From the sequence record MG589383: a stretch of 64,000 bases of DNA; one strand, given 5' to 3'. The notes beneath the pieces were generated by a model. That model had not been told where the DNA came from. It was given only the letters and a program-made list of their open reading frames with translations, and made no database searches. A program made the translations under genes and the position numbers. Shown here one piece after another: positions 6,858 through 18,711 of this stretch (position 1 is its first letter; each line of letters begins with the position of its first letter). This stretch comes from Shigella phage phi25-307.

Positions 6858-7819
6858 TGTACTCTTTAGAAGAATTTAATAACCAAGCTATAAATGCAGA
6901 TTTCCAACGAAACAATATGTTTAGTTGTGTATTTGCTACTACACCGTCGACCAAATCGTCTTCACTAATTTCGTCAATTGGTAGTTTTGCTTATAATAAC
7001 TTAGGGTTGGATTCCGATTGGCTAGGATTGACTCAAGGTGATATCAATCAGGGCGTAACAACCCTGATTACAGCAGGAACACAGAAATTAATTCGAAAAT
7101 CAGGTGTAAGTAAATATCTGATTGGAGCAATGAGTCAACGTACGGTACAAAGCTTGTTAGGTGAGTTCACAGTAGGAGCTTATCTGATAGACTTCTTCAA
7201 TATGGCATATAATAATACAGGTTTAATGATTTATTCTGTAAAAATGCCTGAGAACCGATTATCTTATGAAACGGATTTCAACTATAACTCACCGAACATC
7301 CGAATTACCGGCCGTGAAATGGACCCGTTAGTAATAAGCTTTAGAATGGATTCCGAAGCATCTAACTTTAGAGCAATGCAAGACTGGGTAAACTCAGTCC
7401 AAGACCCTGTAACAGGTCTCCGTGCTTTACCACAAGACGTCGAAGCAGATATTCAGGTTAATTTACATGCACGAAATGGTTTACCACATACCGCTGTCAT
7501 GTTCACCGGATGTATTCCTGTTAGTGTCTCTTCTCCTGAGTTAACGTATGACGGTGATAATCAGATAACAGTTTTTGATGTAACATTTGCTTATCGCGTT
7601 ATGCAATCAGGTGCTGTAAATAGACAGGCTGCTTTAGAATGGCTGGAATCAGGACTTATTAGTAGTGTTTCAGGAATGTTTGGAAATAACCAGAATGATT
7701 CTGGTCTAGGAAGTGCAGTATCAAGACTTTCTAGATTAGGTGGGACCGCTGGAGGTGTGTCTAATATAAACACATTGACAGGTGTGGTGAATTCTGCGTC
7801 AAGAGTTTTAGGACTATAA
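6857..7819 (+). CDS. 54: baseplate tail tube initiator gp54 (320 aa)
   Basis: Size identical to T4 gp54, synteny; followed by terminator hairpin. Confidence 0.88.
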   Translation: MYSLEEFNNQAINADFQRNNMFSCVFATTPSTKSSSLISSIGSFAYNNLGLDSDWLGLTQGDINQGVTTLITAGTQKLIRKSGVSKYLIGAMSQRTVQSLLGEFTVGAYLIDFFNMAYNNTGLMIYSVKMPENRLSYETDFNYNSPNIRITGREMDPLVISFRMDSEASNFRAMQDWVNSVQDPVTGLRALPQDVEADIQVNLHARNGLPHTAVMFTGCIPVSVSSPELTYDGDNQITVFDVTFAYRVMQSGAVNRQAALEWLESGLISSVSGMFGNNQNDSGLGSAVSRLSRLGGTAGGVSNINTLTGVVNSASRVLGL

Positions 7820-7827
7820 AGAAAAAA

Positions 7828-7849
7828 GGGAGACGTTGTCTCCCTTTAG
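7828..7849. terminator. bidirectional hairpin terminator between convergent gene 54 and the alt-downstream ORF
   Basis: GGGAGAC-GTTG-TCTCCC followed by TTT; 9 nt after gene 54 stop. Confidence 0.55.
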
Positions 7850-7853
7850 GGGT

Positions 7854-8147
7854 TTATTTACGGAATGAAAGGAATGCTGGTGCTCGGAATGGAGTATCAT
7901 CTTTAGAGTATTTAACTAATACGACCATTGGTACCTCTGTTTCTAAATGACCCGTCACTACACCGACAAAAATTTGATCAGTGTGTTCAGGGTCACGAAA
8001 GTTTTTAAGAGGTTCCATAGCAATATGGAATGCACCTGGGAATACTCGATTCAATTCGTCAATCACAGCTTCGTTAAAAGCATCATCCGCTGGGATAACA
8101 TCTTCAACTACTAGTTCTTGACCATTAAAGCGAAGCATAGATTTCAT
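7854..8147 (-). CDS. hypothetical early protein downstream of alt (98 aa; start at internal ATG 8147)
   Basis: ORF with SD GAGGA 7 nt upstream of ATG 8147; early promoter (-35 GTTTAC / -10 TACTAT) at 8177-8206; ORF-track N-extension overlapping alt rejected. Confidence 0.5.
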   Translation of the reverse strand: MKSMLRFNGQELVVEDVIPADDAFNEAVIDELNRVFPGAFHIAMEPLKNFRDPEHTDQIFVGVVTGHLETEVPMVVLVKYSKDDTPFRAPAFLSFRK

Positions 8148-8176
8148 AACGTTTTCCTCATGTTGTTGATGGGATG

Positions 8177-8206
8177 ATAGTATCACACATCCATGTGTTT
8201 GTAAAC
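8177..8206 (-). promoter_or_regulatory. T4-type early promoter (-35 GTTTAC, 18-nt spacer, -10 TACTAT)
   Basis: Minus-strand GTTTACAAACACATGGATGTGTGATACTAT; leader CAACAACATGAGGAAA precedes ATG 8147. Confidence 0.5.
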
Positions 8207-10293
8207 TATCCTTGGACAAATTTAAACGGAACTGATTCTAAATCCATTAAAGATGCTAACAATTTCAATCCTTTAGGAGCACTAGTTTTTTCTACAAATG
8301 AGGAGAACGATATCGGCTCATCTGATTCGATTTCACCCGTCATAGCAACCACCTCACCTGTTTCCATGAGAACATCACCGTCGTAAATGACAGCTTCGTC
8401 CAACTGGTCCGAGGACATGACTTCAGCTTGAATAAATTTAAGGTTGGATTCTAAACCTGCACCAGTGTCAGATGACGCATCTGTAATTTTATTTATCTGC
8501 AAGAGAATGCCTCTAGGCAAAATAATTTCTTGCTCATTAGGGTGATTACTCAACTGTCCAGGATAAATCACGTTAACTTTATGGGCGCCATCAATAGCCC
8601 ATCCAACGTTAACACGGATTTGGTCTGGTGCATGCATAGCTGTTCTTACTTGACTAGGAGAAATAGTAACACCTTCGTCATTATTGTCAATGTTAAGCTC
8701 TTTGCGAACTTCTTCAGGAGCAAGTCCAAGGGCAACGTTCTCTTTAAACCCACCGAAAATAATAGGAGCTAGTGAAGTGGAAACATAGTTTCTGAAGTAG
8801 AATACCTTATTTTTAACCATTGCTTCGTAAATAGGCATTCTGATAGACTGAGCTCTATATAACGTTAGTCCTTCAGGTAAACGGTCTCCATTTAAAAACG
8901 CTGAATCAAGACCATCAATAGCGCGTTTAACTTCATCTTCATCTGCAACATCGTAAAAATCTGGTTTATAACGACCTAACAGCATATTATTGATATCGGT
9001 ATACGCAGAAGAGGCATATTCACGAATAGCTCGTTTTTCAGCAACAGAGTATTGATTAGGGACCCGATTCATTGTTATATTAAAGGTGCCTCTAGCCGAT
9101 TCTCGTGCATAAGTATACATCACATTAGACAAGAACGCTGATTTACGTTGTTTCCAAGTTTTTTCAGATACTTCAGCTAAAACGTCGTCAGCCAGTTGGA
9201 AATTATCACGTCTAAAATCTTCAAACCATTCGTCTTTAATAGAGTCTGCAATTTCATTTGCAGCTTCAACAAAAGCAGTTAATGCTTTAACAGATGTTGT
9301 TTTTTCAGTTTTAATTTTCTTAGCAAACTTTTCTAAAGTTGGCTTAATAACACTACCATAAGAAACTTCATCAGCAAATCTAAAGGATTCATCAATACGA
9401 TTATAAATCTTATTTTCGATATCAGCAACTAAAGTGCCTTTTGCTGTGGACGATGCTTGGGCTAGTACGATTTCATATGCTTCAGGAAGTAATTCGGCTG
9501 TAGCTGGGCCACTAACTTCTTTAGCAGAATTTTCGTATTTCTGGAATAACTCACCTTCTTGTCGGTCAGCTTCTAAAGATTGACTTGCTGCAATAGCACG
9601 ACGAGAAATTTTAGTACGAGCAATAACAGGCTTATCTTTACGTTTTTCTTCTACAGCAGCAATAGAACCAGCGATAGCCGTTTCTTTGGTGACCTTTTCG
9701 CCAGTCTTTTTACTCACATAAACTTCGCCAACATCAGAATCTACTTTCGTGTACAACTCTGTGTTAATGTTAGGGATGCCTTTAATATCTTCAATGTTGG
9801 CATTTTTGCGAACCATCATCACATAGGTGTGTTTACCTGTGAATTGATACATTGCCGACAATACTTTAAAACGACCACCGGTTTTAGTAGAAACTAAACG
9901 AGCAAGAAGAGTTTGAAGCTGCTGTCCGCGTCCTTTCAATTTCTTGGTAGGGAATCGGAATAGAACTGCATCCATACGAAGAGCTTTAACCTGTTCATAT
10001 ACTGTATTGAAAATGGTGTTGATTGCATCAATAGGAGCAGGACCAAGGCCATTTTTCAATTCAGCGAGATTGCCCTTTTCAGATAGACTCATAATAACAA
10101 CATGAGCGTATTTGTCGCCAAGTTTAACTTGTTTTACAGCATCACCTTCGGAAAGGTAAGAGAATAAGCGAACTACGATGTTTGTATCGATATCACCAAT
10201 TTTCCAGACTTGTGGAACTTTAGCTTTAGGGTTCAAATTGACGACAGGAAGACTGCCTTCAGATTCAAACACTTCATTTAATTGTTCAGACAT
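8206..10293 (-). CDS. alt: ADP-ribosyltransferase Alt (695 aa)
   Basis: Collinear with T4 Alt (ISRRAIA.SQSLE, GITLYR.Q, YEAMVKN.VFYFRNFVSTSL, ILPRG, KFVQG C-terminus). Confidence 0.92.
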   Translation of the reverse strand: MSEQLNEVFESEGSLPVVNLNPKAKVPQVWKIGDIDTNIVVRLFSYLSEGDAVKQVKLGDKYAHVVIMSLSEKGNLAELKNGLGPAPIDAINTIFNTVYEQVKALRMDAVLFRFPTKKLKGRGQQLQTLLARLVSTKTGGRFKVLSAMYQFTGKHTYVMMVRKNANIEDIKGIPNINTELYTKVDSDVGEVYVSKKTGEKVTKETAIAGSIAAVEEKRKDKPVIARTKISRRAIAASQSLEADRQEGELFQKYENSAKEVSGPATAELLPEAYEIVLAQASSTAKGTLVADIENKIYNRIDESFRFADEVSYGSVIKPTLEKFAKKIKTEKTTSVKALTAFVEAANEIADSIKDEWFEDFRRDNFQLADDVLAEVSEKTWKQRKSAFLSNVMYTYARESARGTFNITMNRVPNQYSVAEKRAIREYASSAYTDINNMLLGRYKPDFYDVADEDEVKRAIDGLDSAFLNGDRLPEGLTLYRAQSIRMPIYEAMVKNKVFYFRNYVSTSLAPIIFGGFKENVALGLAPEEVRKELNIDNNDEGVTISPSQVRTAMHAPDQIRVNVGWAIDGAHKVNVIYPGQLSNHPNEQEIILPRGILLQINKITDASSDTGAGLESNLKFIQAEVMSSDQLDEAVIYDGDVLMETGEVVAMTGEIESDEPISFSSFVEKTSAPKGLKLLASLMDLESVPFKFVQG

Positions 10294-10329
10294 AGTGTTT
10301 TCCTTTTAGTAATAATTTATATTTATGCC

Positions 10330-10349
10330 AAAAAGAGCCCGAAGGCTCT
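10330..10349 (-). terminator. rho-independent terminator (stem AGAGCC/GGCTCT, UUCG loop, U-tract)
   Basis: Minus-strand AAGAGCC-TTCG-GGCTCTT-TTTGG immediately after ORF 10349-10537. Confidence 0.55.
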
Positions 10350-10537
10350 TAATCCACAATCGGGAGCAAAGTACGATAAACTTCAAAATTAGGGCCTTTT
10401 TCGTACCCATTAACGTTATCTACGAAAACCCGATACGAATTTTCATTAGGAAAATCTAATATAATCTGAGAGCAAGAGGTGGAAACATCTCCACCATCCT
10501 TCTTAGCTACAATAACTGTTTCTAAATAAGCTTTCAT
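10349..10537 (-). CDS. hypothetical small protein (62 aa), translationally coupled to ligase (TAATG overlap)
   Basis: ORF between ligase and alt; start ATG 10537 overlaps ligase stop; terminator hairpin at its 3-prime end. Confidence 0.45.
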   Translation of the reverse strand: MKAYLETVIVAKKDGGDVSTSCSQIILDFPNENSYRVFVDNVNGYEKGPNFEVYRTLLPIVD

Positions 10538-12030
10538 TATAAACCTGTCTGGGACCACGGTCCAAATACGTCTTCAAACGAATCCGCTTCTGTTTTATCA
10601 AAACGGAACCCTTTAATAATTGGAAGGAAAATACCTACAGTACCTTCACGGCCTTTAGAATGAACCCAACCATTACATTCACAATCAGCGATACGTCCAA
10701 TTAATTTACCTTCACGAGCTTCGGTCATTAATCGTTCACGGTCTAAATCATGACGCTCGTCTAAAGGAATAAGAACCTTTACACCGTCAACTGTTTTATG
10801 AGTTGTATCTTTAAACCCTGAACCACAATCGGTTGTAATACGACGACAACGTGATACGAGTTCGACACCACCTAATTTGTTAGGGTCTTTAGAGTGTTCA
10901 TAGTATCCTACAACTTCTAAAGCGATATCAATAACTTCTTTAAATTTAATTAGGTTCTTAGAGCGTTTGTTTTCCCAATATGAATCACGGTTTTTAAGGA
11001 TAATACCTTCAAGACCTTGGTCAACATATTTTTTATAAACTACTTTAGCTTCGTCAAGATTACGAACTAACTGATTTTCAATTGGTTCAATTCGCTTAAA
11101 GCCTTCAGCCATATTTTCAAGAGCAGCAAAACGAACATCGTATTTCTGACCTTTAATTTTGCCGTCAGAATAGACTTCATCTAAAGGAACATAGTCCCAG
11201 GCTTGAAGAACCATACCTTCCGCTTCTTTAGGAGAAATAGTCCCTTGAAGAGATTTATTTGCTAAACCATTTGAAGTGCTACGGTCTGCAACTTGTACTT
11301 CTTCGGATTCTTCATTATCACCAAATAAGAACGACAGGTCATTTCCTGAGCTCACAGCCTTTTTAATATCGAATGAATGATAAACTAATTCACCGTCGAT
11401 TAAAACCCCATTAGGGTGTCTTTCACGAGCTTCTTTAGTCATTTCCATTAGTTCATCCGCTAATAGAGTAAGACCATGGTATTCGTTACCAGCACGAGAA
11501 AAGAATTGAACACCATCATCGCGAACTTCAGCGAAACAACGAGCACCATCTGCTTTTAATTGGGCAAATGCGGGCCATTTAATATTTTTAGTAATCAATT
11601 TCTCATCATATGCAGATGCTAACATCTGTGGTTGCAATTGAATAAGTCCAGGCCACACCTTATTCGCGATAGACACTGAAGCACCTACTTCAAGGTCGCG
11701 CATCATTACACGACGAAGGACTTCTACATCATCAGGTTTACCATCAGCGATATAACCCATGAGCTCTTTAATTGCAGCATTACCGGTGAGTTTACGAGTG
11801 GCTAATGTGAACTCAATAAAATCCAACATGTCATCTAATTCAAGAAGACCATATGCTTGAGACCTTTCACCCGGTCCTGGCCATTTCTTAATATAATACT
11901 GGATACCACGTGCATATGTTAAACGATACACACGTTCAAGTAATTTGTTGTCCTTATTTTTCTTAAGGATTTCTTGTTTTGTTTTAGTAGAACCGATCGC
12001 AGCTATTTGGTTTAAAATATCTAAAATCAT
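10537..12030 (-). CDS. 30: ATP-dependent DNA ligase gp30 (497 aa)
   Basis: Collinear with T4 DNA ligase (MIL.ILN.IA.IGSTK.KQ, FAQLKADGARCFAEV, GVLIDGELV, ECECNGW). Confidence 0.94.
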   Translation of the reverse strand: MILDILNQIAAIGSTKTKQEILKKNKDNKLLERVYRLTYARGIQYYIKKWPGPGERSQAYGLLELDDMLDFIEFTLATRKLTGNAAIKELMGYIADGKPDDVEVLRRVMMRDLEVGASVSIANKVWPGLIQLQPQMLASAYDEKLITKNIKWPAFAQLKADGARCFAEVRDDGVQFFSRAGNEYHGLTLLADELMEMTKEARERHPNGVLIDGELVYHSFDIKKAVSSGNDLSFLFGDNEESEEVQVADRSTSNGLANKSLQGTISPKEAEGMVLQAWDYVPLDEVYSDGKIKGQKYDVRFAALENMAEGFKRIEPIENQLVRNLDEAKVVYKKYVDQGLEGIILKNRDSYWENKRSKNLIKFKEVIDIALEVVGYYEHSKDPNKLGGVELVSRCRRITTDCGSGFKDTTHKTVDGVKVLIPLDERHDLDRERLMTEAREGKLIGRIADCECNGWVHSKGREGTVGIFLPIIKGFRFDKTEADSFEDVFGPWSQTGL

Positions 12031-12296
12031 TTGATGTCCTCGATTTTGGTTACGGTTCTATTATAAGCCACTTCATCTAGAAGCGATTTCAGCGTTTTCT
12101 GATAAGTGGTAATCCATTTACCGAGACCTTCAACATAATATTCTGAAATGTAGATGAACCCTTGTTCAACACACTCTTTAAATATTTCTGCGTCTTTTAC
12201 TGAACGAAACATTGGCCAGTCTCGAAAGAACATGTTAACGTGACCGTAGTCACGCGTTGTGTTTTTGCCATCTGTAATATCATGAACTACAAACAT
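12027..12296 (-). CDS. hypothetical protein (89 aa)
   Basis: ORF in 30.x early block, 4-nt overlap with ligase start. Confidence 0.5.
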   Translation of the reverse strand: MFVVHDITDGKNTTRDYGHVNMFFRDWPMFRSVKDAEIFKECVEQGFIYISEYYVEGLGKWITTYQKTLKSLLDEVAYNRTVTKIEDIK

Positions 12297-12305
12297 AATT
12301 AACCC

Positions 12306-13130
12306 TTAACAATTTGTAGACCAAGTCCATTTGGACGAATCTAAAGGAAAGTTTTGAATCGTCCACCATGGCTGCATATCGGTTGGTCCTGGGGTTCGCC
12401 AGGTATATGGAGTACGTGTTGTCGAGGGGCCACCAATTTGATTAGGCCATGCACCTGGACTTGTTGTACCAGATTCTTTAAGCAAATCCGCCAATCGTTT
12501 TAAAAGGTCTTCACGATCTGAATCTGAATTATGCTCGGGTGGAACCAAACGAGATTCAATATCATCCCACGTGTGTACACGTTGTGCAGTACGAGGAATG
12601 GCATCACGTTCACCACGAGCCAACCAATAAATCGGTACATTAAGAATTTCTGCTGCATGGTCACAATGATGAGCTAAATCGTCAACGTAACAAATCACGT
12701 TATATTTTGTTTTAGCTAGTTCGAATAATTGTTCCTTTGAAGAATCATGACCACACATCATTACTTCAGAGAAAGCGCCTGGGAACAAAGCATTCAAATT
12801 AAATTGTCTATTCAATCGAGCATCAATTGAATCACCTAGCGCCGTCACGGCTACAAAATTATAGTCTTCTTTTAGTTTATTGATAACTCGAAGAGCATCC
12901 GAATAAGGCGCTAAGTAACGAATAAAATCAGAGCTATTATATTTTTCTATTAATTGTTTACCAAGGTTATCGTCGGTATTGAACAGTTTACCAGGAGAAA
13001 TAAATTTTTCGTCCTGAATCATTTTTAAAATATGTTCTAATGGAAGATTATATTTTTGGGCAAAATAAGGAAGTCCAGATTGCCAGCTTAAACATACACC
13101 ATCAATATCAGTCAAAATAGTAGGTTTCAT
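12306..13130 (-). CDS. HAD-superfamily hydrolase-like protein (274 aa)
   Basis: N-terminal ILTDIDGV motif (HAD motif I, DxDG[TV]); Trp/Pro-rich C-terminal tail of uncertain authenticity. Confidence 0.55.
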   Translation of the reverse strand: MKPTILTDIDGVCLSWQSGLPYFAQKYNLPLEHILKMIQDEKFISPGKLFNTDDNLGKQLIEKYNSSDFIRYLAPYSDALRVINKLKEDYNFVAVTALGDSIDARLNRQFNLNALFPGAFSEVMMCGHDSSKEQLFELAKTKYNVICYVDDLAHHCDHAAEILNVPIYWLARGERDAIPRTAQRVHTWDDIESRLVPPEHNSDSDREDLLKRLADLLKESGTTSPGAWPNQIGGPSTTRTPYTWRTPGPTDMQPWWTIQNFPLDSSKWTWSTNC

Positions 13131-13594
13131 AAAGAGTCTCTTAATAGGTTTAACACATCAATAAATTCAGCTTCGGTTAGTATTGTATCATCTTTTGTTA
13201 GACCGCTAGCCATGCTGTGCTTCAAAATTTTTCCTTTAGAGGCTTGTAAGGCATCACGAAACCCCTTGTTTTGGATCGCGGCTTCAAAATATGCATTTGT
13301 GTATAATTCTTTCCACGCTTCGGAGTATCTTGAAAATGGAACTCCTAACCAGAAGAGAGTTCCACGGTCCTGAGCTCTTGCATAAGACCTTCCAGCTTGC
13401 TGTGCAGCCAATCCAGACATCCCAAATATGCGTCTTTGTTGTTCAACATTTTTCACCTTACATCCTTGGAGAAATCCTTCAAGTCCTCCGAATTGAATAC
13501 CATCCATAACGAAAGGCCATTGAGCAAAGTTACTTAATGCACATGACGGCCATTTGAAATTGCTTCTTATTTCTAATTCAGACATCTTTAACAC
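13127..13594 (-). CDS. NADAR / YbiA-like domain protein (155 aa)
   Basis: LSNFAQWPFVMDGIQF resembles the YbiA/NADAR core motif (FSNFAAWP..DG); call from memory, not searched. Confidence 0.5.
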   Translation of the reverse strand: MLKMSELEIRSNFKWPSCALSNFAQWPFVMDGIQFGGLEGFLQGCKVKNVEQQRRIFGMSGLAAQQAGRSYARAQDRGTLFWLGVPFSRYSEAWKELYTNAYFEAAIQNKGFRDALQASKGKILKHSMASGLTKDDTILTEAEFIDVLNLLRDSL

Positions 13595-13796
13595 TTATAA
13601 TTTCAACATCAGCCCAATGGCCATATCCAGGTATACGGTCTTCGATAGATAAATTTCCGTCATTTTTAGGCATTTTAATTGACGTAACGTATGGTTCTAA
13701 ACGGTTTTCTGCATAATACGGAAAAACGTCTGTTACACGATAAGTAACTTCGATCATTTCCGTACCAAACAATTTCTGGATTAATTTATTCAACAT
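13578..13796 (-). CDS. hypothetical protein (72 aa)
   Basis: ORF in operon-like arrangement with overlapping starts/stops. Confidence 0.45.
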   Translation of the reverse strand: MLNKLIQKLFGTEMIEVTYRVTDVFPYYAENRLEPYVTSIKMPKNDGNLSIEDRIPGYGHWADVEIISVKDV

Positions 13797-14037: not shown

Positions 14038-14652
14038 CTACTTAACGAAATTAATTTCTACTGGATGAACAACAGGTTGAGCAGTGATATATTGAGTAAT
14101 TGCTTTCATGACTAGAGCTTCAGAACCAGGATTTTTCTCAACGAATTCACGTGCTTGGTTATGAGCTTCAAGTTCACTTAGTAAACCACTTCGTTGGCAT
14201 CCACGGTCTTGAGTACCCTGTTCAGATAAAAAGACGACGATGTATTTTTCATCGTCATACGGTTTAGACGGTTGAGCAAATGTTCCTTTACTTCCAAAAG
14301 GAGAGTTATGACGCCACATCACGCCGTGAGGAGTTTCAACCTTCATATATTCGTGCGGGCCATTTTTCTTAGTTTCTTGATGTGGAACTTCGTGGACCTT
14401 AGGGTTAGGACATTCAATAAAATGCTCATCTAAATCGGTCGAGAATATTAAAGTAAAACAATTACTGAATTTACCAACACCTGCCTGATAAATTTTACCT
14501 TCAGAAGTTCTAATTTCACAAACCGAGCCGGCATCAGTAACTTCTAAAACTTCAAAAGGCTCGATAAGGTCATATGAGAACATGTTTTTAAGGCGTGGAG
14601 TAATATCCCCATTTTTAAAATTCATTTTATAAAAAGTATTAACTTTAAACAT
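14038..14652 (-). CDS. hypothetical protein (204 aa)
   Basis: Long ORF, SD GAGGAAATT upstream of ATG; no recognisable domain. Confidence 0.55.
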   Translation of the reverse strand: MFKVNTFYKMNFKNGDITPRLKNMFSYDLIEPFEVLEVTDAGSVCEIRTSEGKIYQAGVGKFSNCFTLIFSTDLDEHFIECPNPKVHEVPHQETKKNGPHEYMKVETPHGVMWRHNSPFGSKGTFAQPSKPYDDEKYIVVFLSEQGTQDRGCQRSGLLSELEAHNQAREFVEKNPGSEALVMKAITQYITAQPVVHPVEINFVK

Positions 14653-14687: not shown

Positions 14688-15053
14688 TTAGATATCGAAT
14701 TCGTTAAGAACTACATCAAAGATTGCTTCGAGATGTTCAGGTTTAGCTCGGTTACTCAGGATATGACGAATCCAAGTTTTAACCAGAAGTTTACGATTAT
14801 CACCGTTCCAGCAAGGATGAGTACCTAAATCACGTTGACGGAAATCGTCATCTAATGCAATTTTGAAGTTGGAACCTTCCATCGTGATTGAAACCGTGAT
14901 GCCATTTTCAAATCGCATATAAACGTAATTAGGAGTCATATACTGCTCAATTTCACATACTGAACCGTTATTATGTTTCCATAAGCAAATCGTATCAATA
15001 GAACCAGCAATACCGTTAGAAACATATTTACGTTCGAAGTTGATGTAGTTCAT
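14688..15053 (-). CDS. hypothetical protein (121 aa)
   Basis: ORF with early promoter (15092-15124) and SD GGAGAATAAA upstream. Confidence 0.5.
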   Translation of the reverse strand: MNYINFERKYVSNGIAGSIDTICLWKHNNGSVCEIEQYMTPNYVYMRFENGITVSITMEGSNFKIALDDDFRQRDLGTHPCWNGDNRKLLVKTWIRHILSNRAKPEHLEAIFDVVLNEFDI

Positions 15054-17137: not shown

Positions 17138-17719
17138 TTATTCACCACAAAAGTTTCGGATTTGTTCCCAATTCAGAGAACGAAGATTATTACGAGAGTA
17201 CTGAATTACTTCAATACCGGCTTGTTTTAGAATGTCTGCCCAATTTTCAGGAGATCTGTCATATAATTCTGCGTATACAACCTTTTTAATACCTGACTGC
17301 GTAATAGCTTTAGTGCAATCAGGACATGGAGAAAGTGTCGTATACAACGTAGCACCTTCAATAGAATTACCTTTACGAGCTGCAAACAAAATGGCATTCA
17401 ATTCAGCATGGATTTCGTTATTAGCAGACCATGCACTATGAGCGGCCCGATGTTCTTTAGCCAAAACAAAATTATCCACCCGTCCAAATGCTGTAGTGCC
17501 TTCTTTATGTCCGGCAACGATGACCGGGCTTGGTTTATTCTTCAACCAACCGTTTTCGGATGCATGTTCACAACAGTTAACGCCACCTGCTGGTGAGCCA
17601 TTATATCCAGTAGAGATAATGCGTCCATCTTTTTCAATGACGGCACCAACTTTCCATGAACAACATTTTGATTCTTGAGAAATCAGATATGCAATCTGAA
17701 GGTATGTGCTAGCTTTCAT
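17138..17719 (-). CDS. cd: dCMP deaminase (193 aa)
   Basis: Cytidine/dCMP deaminase zinc motifs HAELNA and PCPDC; size equals T4 Cd. Confidence 0.9.
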   Translation of the reverse strand: MKASTYLQIAYLISQESKCCSWKVGAVIEKDGRIISTGYNGSPAGGVNCCEHASENGWLKNKPSPVIVAGHKEGTTAFGRVDNFVLAKEHRAAHSAWSANNEIHAELNAILFAARKGNSIEGATLYTTLSPCPDCTKAITQSGIKKVVYAELYDRSPENWADILKQAGIEVIQYSRNNLRSLNWEQIRNFCGE

Positions 17720-18711
17720 TATTGAACCTTATTAATATAAGTTAACAGCTCTTTAGTTTGTTCCCAACCGATGCACGCATCGGTAACGGAAACGCCATAG
17801 GACATATTATCAGAAATTTTTTGATTTCCTTCATGTAGGAATGATTCTATCATAATTCCTTTGACCAAATCATTAGCTGCTAAATTTTTACCAATACCAA
17901 TTTGATTGCTATAATACCCATCAGCGTTTGCGTGGCTACAGTCAACCATTACATAATGATTCAGACCTAATGCACTTGCTTTGTTAGAAGCTTCTTGAAT
18001 ATCAGAAGAATGATAGTTCGGGCCGTTAGTCCCGCCACGCAATACGATATGCGTATTCTGATTACCTTCAGCTTCAACAATGCCTACAGTACCATCGACG
18101 TCCATACCCATATACCGATGAGGCCAGGCGGCACTATACATCGCGTCTGTAGCTACTTTAATAGAACCATTGGTTGCGTTCTTGAAGCCTACGCACATCG
18201 GTAGACCTGAAGCAATTTCACGATGTGTCTGACTTTCAGTCGTACGGGCGCCAATAGCAACCCATGAGAAAATACCAGAAAGATACTTAATCGTGAATGG
18301 GTCTAATACTTCAGTTGCTAATGGAAGTCCCATACGTAGAAGTTTACGACACAATGTTCGTGCAACTATAAGACCGTGGTTCATATCAAAACTTCCGTCA
18401 AGATATGGATCATTTACAAGACCTTTCCAACCTACGGTAGTTCGAGGCTTTTCAAAATAAACGCGCATCACTAACAGAACATTAGGAAGACGAGTTTGAA
18501 GTTCAGCCAGACGTTTGCCGTATTCAACAGCAGCAATAGGGTCATGAATTGAACAAGGACCTACAACAATAAGTTTGCGTGGGTCTTCACCGTTCATAAT
18601 CGAATTAACTTGTTCGCGATGAGAAGCCACTTGTGATGCGTAAGCTTCCGACAAAGGAATAATCTCAGCCAGTTCTTTTGGAGAAATAAGTTTTCTGACG
18701 ATAGGTAACAT
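17719..18711 (-). CDS. 3-deoxy-D-arabino-heptulosonate-7-phosphate (DAHP) synthase, class I-alpha AroG-like (330 aa)
   Basis: Motifs shared with E. coli AroG along the whole length: GPCSIHDP, VMRVYFEKPRTTVGWKGL.NDP, GARTTESQ.HRE.ASGL, VGFKN.T.G.IKVA.DA, LRGG, D.SHAN, ESFL.EGNQ, TDACIGWE. Confidence 0.85.
   Translation of the reverse strand: MLPIVRKLISPKELAEIIPLSEAYASQVASHREQVNSIMNGEDPRKLIVVGPCSIHDPIAAVEYGKRLAELQTRLPNVLLVMRVYFEKPRTTVGWKGLVNDPYLDGSFDMNHGLIVARTLCRKLLRMGLPLATEVLDPFTIKYLSGIFSWVAIGARTTESQTHREIASGLPMCVGFKNATNGSIKVATDAMYSAAWPHRYMGMDVDGTVGIVEAEGNQNTHIVLRGGTNGPNYHSSDIQEASNKASALGLNHYVMVDCSHANADGYYSNQIGIGKNLAANDLVKGIMIESFLHEGNQKISDNMSYGVSVTDACIGWEQTKELLTYINKVQ

Follow-up and report, generated by a model that had tools for sequence, protein, structure and literature searches.

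The gene 30.3 product of phage T4, AdfN, is the closest described counterpart of a NADAR-like protein encoded in a 64,000-nucleotide stretch of Shigella phage phi25-307 (sequence record MG589383; hereafter the window, to which all coordinates refer). In T-even phages, resistance to DarTG1 was mapped to 30.3, now called adfN, by Johannesman, Carlson and LeRoux (PMC11257639). In that work, deletion of adfN in T4 or T2 lowered plating on DarTG1 hosts by about four logs, 30.3 supplied in trans rescued RB69 on DarTG1, and T4 AdfN was found to be both necessary and sufficient against this system; moreover, the E36A and K43A variants were inactive, and the purified protein stripped ADP-ribose from DarT1-modified DNA (PMC11257639). 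The roles of the catalytic residues in gp30.3-type proteins have been described (PMC11257639, PMC11543638), and independent biochemistry has determined that the T4 NADAR takes off guanosine-linked ADP-ribose, this enzyme not being among those tabulated by the authors as removing the cytidine-linked form (PMC11125620, PMC12945103). AdfN shares its fold, a Glu/Lys catalytic pair and the removal of ADP-ribose from guanine with the DarG1 and BC4488-type NADAR antitoxins and with E. coli YbiA, while the third catalytic position is His in AdfN, as against Asp in DarG1 or Glu in YbiA. In addition, AdfN consists of the core domain only and is not encoded beside a DarT gene, and T4 AdfN is no antitoxin in uninfected cells. 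In the window, an initial annotation had joined this NADAR-like protein, the ADP-ribosyltransferase Alt and a HAD-like hydrolase (8206-13594) into an ADP-ribose writer/eraser set or a single counter-defence module.

The analysis of gene identities, folds, motifs and intactness, together with that of synteny statistics and transcription signals, leads to a different reading, namely that the block is very probably the ordinary 'alt - 30 - 30.x' region of a T-even phage, with three functionally separate genes and not a module, whose proximity would be due to inherited gene order. The phage itself is, by DNA comparison, a Mosigvirus, that is, an RB69-like T-even phage: a stretch of about 6 kb surrounding these genes is 99.2% identical to Escherichia phage S143_2 (Mosigvirus) and 97-98% identical to many further Mosigvirus genomes, and RB69 shows about 97% identity across the block. 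The three genes are all present on the minus strand, as initially annotated, with alt at 8206..10293 (695 aa), 30.2 at 12306..13130 (274 aa) and 30.3 at 13127..13585 (152 aa), but they are not adjacent. Alt.1 (10349..10537; Phage_blade family, PF24647, E=1.7e-28), the ATP-dependent DNA ligase gene 30 (10537..12030; PF01068, E=1.9e-26) and 30.1 (12027..12296; DUF3045, PF11243, E=9.9e-27), the last lying between 30.2 and the ligase gene, separate alt from 30.2, all of them also on the minus strand. The complete order on this strand, alt.-3, alt, alt.1, 30, 30.1, 30.2, 30.3, 30.4, 30.5 onward, is the one annotated in both T4 and RB69. The start of 30.3 was taken as the ATG at 13585, which gives 152 aa in agreement with T4 and related records, and not as the GTG at 13594.

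The identity of gp30.3 was established with its own Pfam family, Phage_30_3 (PF08010), which is matched over profile positions 1-138 of 138 with E=3.8e-69 and 231 bits, compared with a cut-off of 36 bits. PF08719, the Pfam model for NADARs in general, gave no hit at E<=0.1, and the NCBIfam and PADLOC searches, as well as a sequence search against the PDB, gave no match to this protein. The gp30.3 family has a Pfam model of its own, and only comparisons of profiles or folds link it to the NADARs. In fact, a profile of gp30.3 homologues matches E. coli YbiA at the motif 'SNFAxWP..DG' (E=0.008), and the three best PDB fold matches of the gp30.3 model, which is of moderate quality (predicted local distance difference test score, pLDDT, 78.5), are all NADARs: YbiA 2b3w (E 2.2e-4, template modelling (TM) score 0.60), PnNADAR 8bau and the G. 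lovleyi NADAR 8bat. The initial NADAR call, made from a short motif, was thus confirmed by PF08010, the YbiA profile match and the fold, and not by PF08719.

Compared with T4 gp30.3, the window protein has the same length and the same place between 30.4 and 30.2, and 147 of 152 residues are identical (96.7% at the amino acid and 90.2% at the nucleotide level), the five substitutions leaving E36, K43, H123 and the C-terminal helix in common. Judged by its sequence, gp30.3 is the orthologue of T4 AdfN. The catalytic codons lie at 13478-13480 (E36), 13457-13459 (K43) and 13217-13219 (H123); E36 and H123 are invariant across an alignment of seven gp30.3 sequences, and the His, which belongs to the last strand, is a hallmark of the phage gp30.3 family, in the place where other NADARs carry Glu or Asp. 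RB69 belongs to the same genus and has the same flanking genes, but a single-T insertion removes the last 15 residues of its gp30.3 and it is DarTG1-sensitive. The window copy lacks this insertion and encodes the full 152 aa with the C-terminal helix intact. A homologue which seems to be split into open reading frames of 67 and 50 aa was also observed at 7720-8163 of a 256-kb vibriophage-like contig, which suggests another naturally disrupted adfN allele like that of RB69.

The conservation of 30.3 exceeds that of most of its surroundings. Amino acid identity to T4 is 96.7% for gp30.3, as against 43.5% for Alt, 66.5% for the ligase, 71.2% for gp30.2 and 84.3% for the structural protein gp54, and most of the differences in 30.3 are synonymous. 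Mostly synonymous change, together with an identity above that of most neighbours (44-84% aa), points to strong purifying selection. The internal out-of-frame reading frame 30.3' of T4 was considered as the cause of this conservation and rejected, as the matching frame is just 34 aa long here; it is the single internal same-strand open reading frame of at least 30 aa inside 30.3 (13345-13449, minus strand), and 30.3' is apparently not conserved. Another product of the region, gp30.7 (14688-15053), is likewise 97.5% identical to T4 in amino acids and about 90% in nucleotides, in the midst of neighbours at 44-84% aa.

By analogy with T4, AdfN would be a small single-domain NADAR, made early in infection, which would hydrolyse the N-glycosidic bond that joins ADP-ribose to guanine in the DNA of the phage. 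Its action would be catalytic, through E36, K43 and H123, and exerted on the DNA, not by binding the toxin; the replication-blocking marks left by the host DarT1 toxin would be erased in this way, so that the phage could grow on DarTG1 hosts. The enzymatic activity and the DarTG1 phenotype, as well as the neutrality of 30.2 and alt described below, come from published work on the T4 orthologues and would be expected to hold in this phage. As the gene is full-length and free of the RB69 insertion, the phage is predicted, by orthology, to resist DarTG1, unlike RB69. The DNA of RB69 carries arabosylated, not glucosylated, hydroxymethylcytosine, and its relatives Bas46 and Bas47 do resist DarTG1 (PMC11257639); the phage analysed here is also a Mosigvirus, unlike T4. 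The role against DNA ADP-ribosylation of the DarT type, which the initial annotation suggested for the NADAR-like protein, is very probably right, and it had already been published for the 97%-identical T4 AdfN (PMC11257639, PMC11125620, PMC12945103), so that the anti-DarT role of this gene was already known.

The second gene, 30.2, encodes a HAD core with a helical cap in residues 1-222 (12465-13130), followed by a disordered tail rich in W, P and T (residues 223-274; 12309-12464). HAD motifs I to IV are found as DIDGV at residues 8-12, T96, K132 and D150-D151, and 53 homologues show no change at D8, D10, K132, D150 or D151, while at least 90% of them keep T96. The structure model, which is confident, presents the Rossmann-like HAD core fold with the helical cap inserted after motif I. 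In HAD phosphatases the second Asp of the DxD motif is the general acid; capped members usually act on small substrates, while cap-less ones act on macromolecules. Profile searches were less informative: the Pfam HAD_2 model gave 16.0 bits against a cut-off of 23.8 (E=0.014), TIGR01428 of NCBIfam gave 12.7 against 125.4, and a PADLOC search of gp30.2 gave no match. The Pfam check which the initial annotation had proposed for its two domain calls therefore formally failed on both sides, HAD_2 falling below threshold and PF08719 giving no match, and it is the motifs and the fold that uphold the HAD call.

The top Foldseek matches of gp30.2 are the cdN/mdN deoxyribonucleotidases and its best PDB sequence match is 2jao, while its motif I, DIDGV, resembles the MDGV-type motif I of the deoxyribonucleotidases. 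With cdN/mdN (Pfam NT5C) and other subfamily-I HAD phosphatases it shares the DxDGV, Thr, Lys and DD motifs, the Rossmann-like core and the helical cap. Most likely, gp30.2 is a HAD phosphatase whose substrate is small and nucleotide-like, in the manner of the 5'(3')-deoxyribonucleotidases, a substrate class that we infer from these similarities. It would be a Mg2+-dependent phosphomonoesterase, dispensable for growth as well as for the anti-DarTG1 activity. The family is large, falling into no fewer than 1,074 clusters when grouped at 50% identity, and has no Pfam model; a full-text literature search for 'gp30.2' found no paper. The tail of about 50 residues is variable, missing in many homologues and unrelated in sequence to that of T4. 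Small in-frame indels in the tail were observed even among Mosigviruses that are about 97-99% identical, the protein having 274 aa here, 271 in RB69 and 270 in S143_2. The longer members of the family (P0120, P0164, P0175 and P0212) were scanned for fused domains and none informative was found, and the precomputed Pfam domains on the listed homologues comprised none except PF11243 on P0035. This database protein of 302 aa joins a 30.2-like region to a PF11243 (gp30.1) domain, and may be either a true fusion or the product of read-through or of an assembly error.

Two further roles can be considered for gp30.2. The first is that it works with the DNA ligase in nucleic-acid end processing, for instance as a 3'-phosphatase preparing nicks, and this is unlikely: the helical cap after motif I is of the kind that usually goes with small substrates, T4 PNK is outscored by many other HAD enzymes in comparison with gp30.2, the phage already has pseT, and in T4 the ligase is essential and 30.2 is not. 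The second is a new role for the family, such as the breakdown of a defence signal derived from nucleotides, the editing of the pool of modified nucleotides, or joint action with the ligase or AdfN against a DNA-modifying defence, to which only a low probability is assigned.

The linkage of these genes was then evaluated across phages in two samples, one anchored on gp30.3 (15 divergent loci, tblastn within 8 kb) and the other on gp30.2 homologues (78 IMG/VR loci, neighbours within 6 kb). In the first, 14 of the 15 loci had neither 30.2 nor the ligase nor alt within 8 kb, the neighbours being genes for helicase, topoisomerase, nrdAB or RNA ligase; when the open reading frames on the same strand within 3.5 kb of the divergent gp30.3 loci were searched with a profile, no hidden 30.2 homologue was revealed. 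Reading frames of about 200 aa beside gp30.3 in divergent phages had been candidates for such a homologue, and were rejected as a PDDEXK nuclease and a DprA-like protein. In the second sample, the ligase lay within 6 kb of 30.2 in 72/78 loci (usually at less than 600 bp), alt in 56/78 and gp30.3 in 37/78, gp30.3 directly adjoining 30.2 in 22/78. The gene that accompanies 30.2 most regularly is the ligase, and not the NADAR gene. The linkage between 30.2 and 30.3 is accordingly partial rather than absent, which softens the conclusion from the first sample. In several genomes a distance of tens of kilobases, up to about 100 kb, separates the two genes. The best reading of the arrangement is that of an ancestral syntenic block out of which 30.3 has repeatedly moved. 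Records of T4-like phages number about 1,509 for 30.3 and about 1,440 for 30.2, with near-identical host distributions; since both genes are near-universal in these phages, their co-occurrence says little.

The functional relation between the genes can be assessed with the HIDEN-SEQ transposon-insertion data for T4 (Data S6; bioRxiv 10.1101/2025.11.20.689424). On the DarTG1 host, insertions in 30.3 were lost (log2 fold change -7.25, adjusted p 0), those in 30.2 were neutral (71 sites, -0.12, p 0.61), and the same was true of alt (178 sites, -0.01, p 0.97) and of adfA/61.2 (-0.34) (bioRxiv 10.1101/2025.11.20.689424). Insertions in 30.4 were depleted (-1.79, adjusted p 0.014), and the value for 30.5, -3.0, was not significant (bioRxiv 10.1101/2025.11.20.689424); the depletion of 30.4 could reflect a polar effect on adfN or a real contribution. 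In the same data 30.2 of T4 is non-essential, and it is neutral in the RnlAB, LB-versus-M9 and an earlier comparison sheet (bioRxiv 10.1101/2025.11.20.689424). These results bear on the proposal that gp30.2 is an accessory of AdfN, either dephosphorylating or otherwise disposing of a product derived from ADP-ribose or serving as a T-even-specific cofactor. The overlap of the 30.3 stop with the 30.2 start, the adjacency or proximity in part of the 78 loci, the near-identical host distributions and the inability of AdfN to neutralise DarT1 outside T-even infection would favour it. Nevertheless, the proposal is very improbable in view of the contrast between the 30.2 and 30.3 insertions on DarTG1, the activity of purified AdfN alone in vitro, and the distance between the two genes in many genomes.

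The third gene, alt, was correctly identified as such in the initial annotation, its product matching PF03496 with E=3.8e-28 and PHROG 802 with E=7e-260 over its full length; the PADLOC and NCBIfam searches of Alt gave no match. The ADP-ribosyltransferase domain covers about residues 409-610 (8464-9069), with R480, S505 (in STS) and E587-Q-E589. In the R-S-E transferases, the ExE signature marks arginine-specific protein ADP-ribosyltransferases. Alt is 92% identical to that of RB69; T4 Alt is of the same family, length class and genomic position and has the same R-S-ExE motif, the identity being only 43.5%. Variants of Alt are reported to differ functionally: T4 Alt counters Mokosh type I and Bas37 Alt does not (bioRxiv 10.1101/2025.11.20.689424).

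Upstream of alt, on the minus strand, a hairpin resembling a terminator (AGAGCC-UUCG-GGCUCU and then a run of U; 10328..10350) lies just downstream of alt.1, with an RNA folding energy of -10.5 kcal/mol (z = -2.7). It is followed at 10314..10327, some 20 nt upstream from the ATG of alt, by the late-promoter-like element CATAAATATAAATT, which contains two overlapping 7/8 matches to the T4 late-promoter consensus, TATAAATA. RB69 retains the hairpin, as does T4 with compensating changes, and at the aligned position T4 carries the hairpin and an exact TATAAATA. With a hairpin and a late-promoter-like element before it, alt looks like a separate late transcription unit, which fits the note in the T4 record that Alt is carried in the particle. 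The product of this separately transcribed late gene would be packaged and injected, and would ADP-ribosylate arginines of RNA polymerase alpha and of further host proteins, sharing no substrate with AdfN. The Alt-AdfN pair does not fit the DarTG pattern of adjacent, co-transcribed genes directed at a common substrate. That AdfN, with or without the HAD enzyme, would reverse or limit the ADP-ribosylation by the phage's own Alt in toxin-antitoxin fashion is extremely improbable, even if both proteins handle ADP-ribose, their genes lie within 5 kb on the same strand and alt is often (56 of the 78 loci) no more than 6 kb from 30.2: Alt bears the R-S-ExE of arginine-specific protein transferases while the specificity of the T4 NADAR is for ADP-ribose linked to guanosine on nucleic acid, alt is preceded by a terminator and a late promoter of its own, T4 tolerates adfN and alt insertions and the adfN deletion is defective only on DarTG1, so that no Alt toxicity is unmasked, and 30.3 is placed elsewhere in many T4-like genomes. 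The writer/eraser set or single module of the initial annotation is not supported, as the intervening genes, the signals of alt, the differing substrates, the synteny and the transposon sequencing all speak against it.

Several points weigh against the reading of three separate genes. The functional data on the AdfN system all come from T4, T2 and RB69, and not from the phage analysed, and the neutrality of 30.2 was measured in a single host with a single DarTG1 system. AdfN is effective in T-even infection only, for which hydroxymethylated DNA has been put forward as an as yet unproven explanation (PMC11257639). As for transcription, the match of the alt late promoter is imperfect (7/8), and the hairpin was read directly from the sequence, as a terminator consensus scan did not list it. 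Moreover, 30.3 shares the bases of its stop codon with the start of 30.2 (ATGA), and this overlap, together with the adjacency in 22/78 loci, makes some co-expression of 30.3 and 30.2 likely.

The remaining neighbours, all on the minus strand, complete the picture of the region. Alt.-3 (DUF5498; 7854..8147; PF17602, E=6e-26), annotated also in T4 and RB69, lies downstream of alt, and 30.4 (13578..13796; PHROG 2042) is a small open reading frame with its last 8 nt overlapping the start of adfN. A 204-aa open reading frame at 14038-14652 (PHROG 17531; no match in the Pfam and PADLOC searches) occupies the place of gene 30.6 of T4 and RB69, and occurs in other Mosigviruses too; the DNA alignments of the window to T4 and RB69 break around it, at about 13800/13984-14646. 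Further on, a gene of the DAHP-synthase family (17719-18711; PF00793, E=1.8e-74) lies directly upstream of that for dCMP deaminase, at a position where the T4 record has cd.1 and cd.2 instead.

As regards annotation, the Alt and HAD genes of this locus should not be assigned to a module, whether of the ADP-ribose writer/eraser or of the anti-DarT kind. The single real gap at the locus is gp30.2, a very widespread and conserved phage phosphatase. The value of the locus for prediction lies in adfN: the gene is intact, and resistance to DarTG1 would therefore be expected in this phage, where its close relative RB69 is sensitive.

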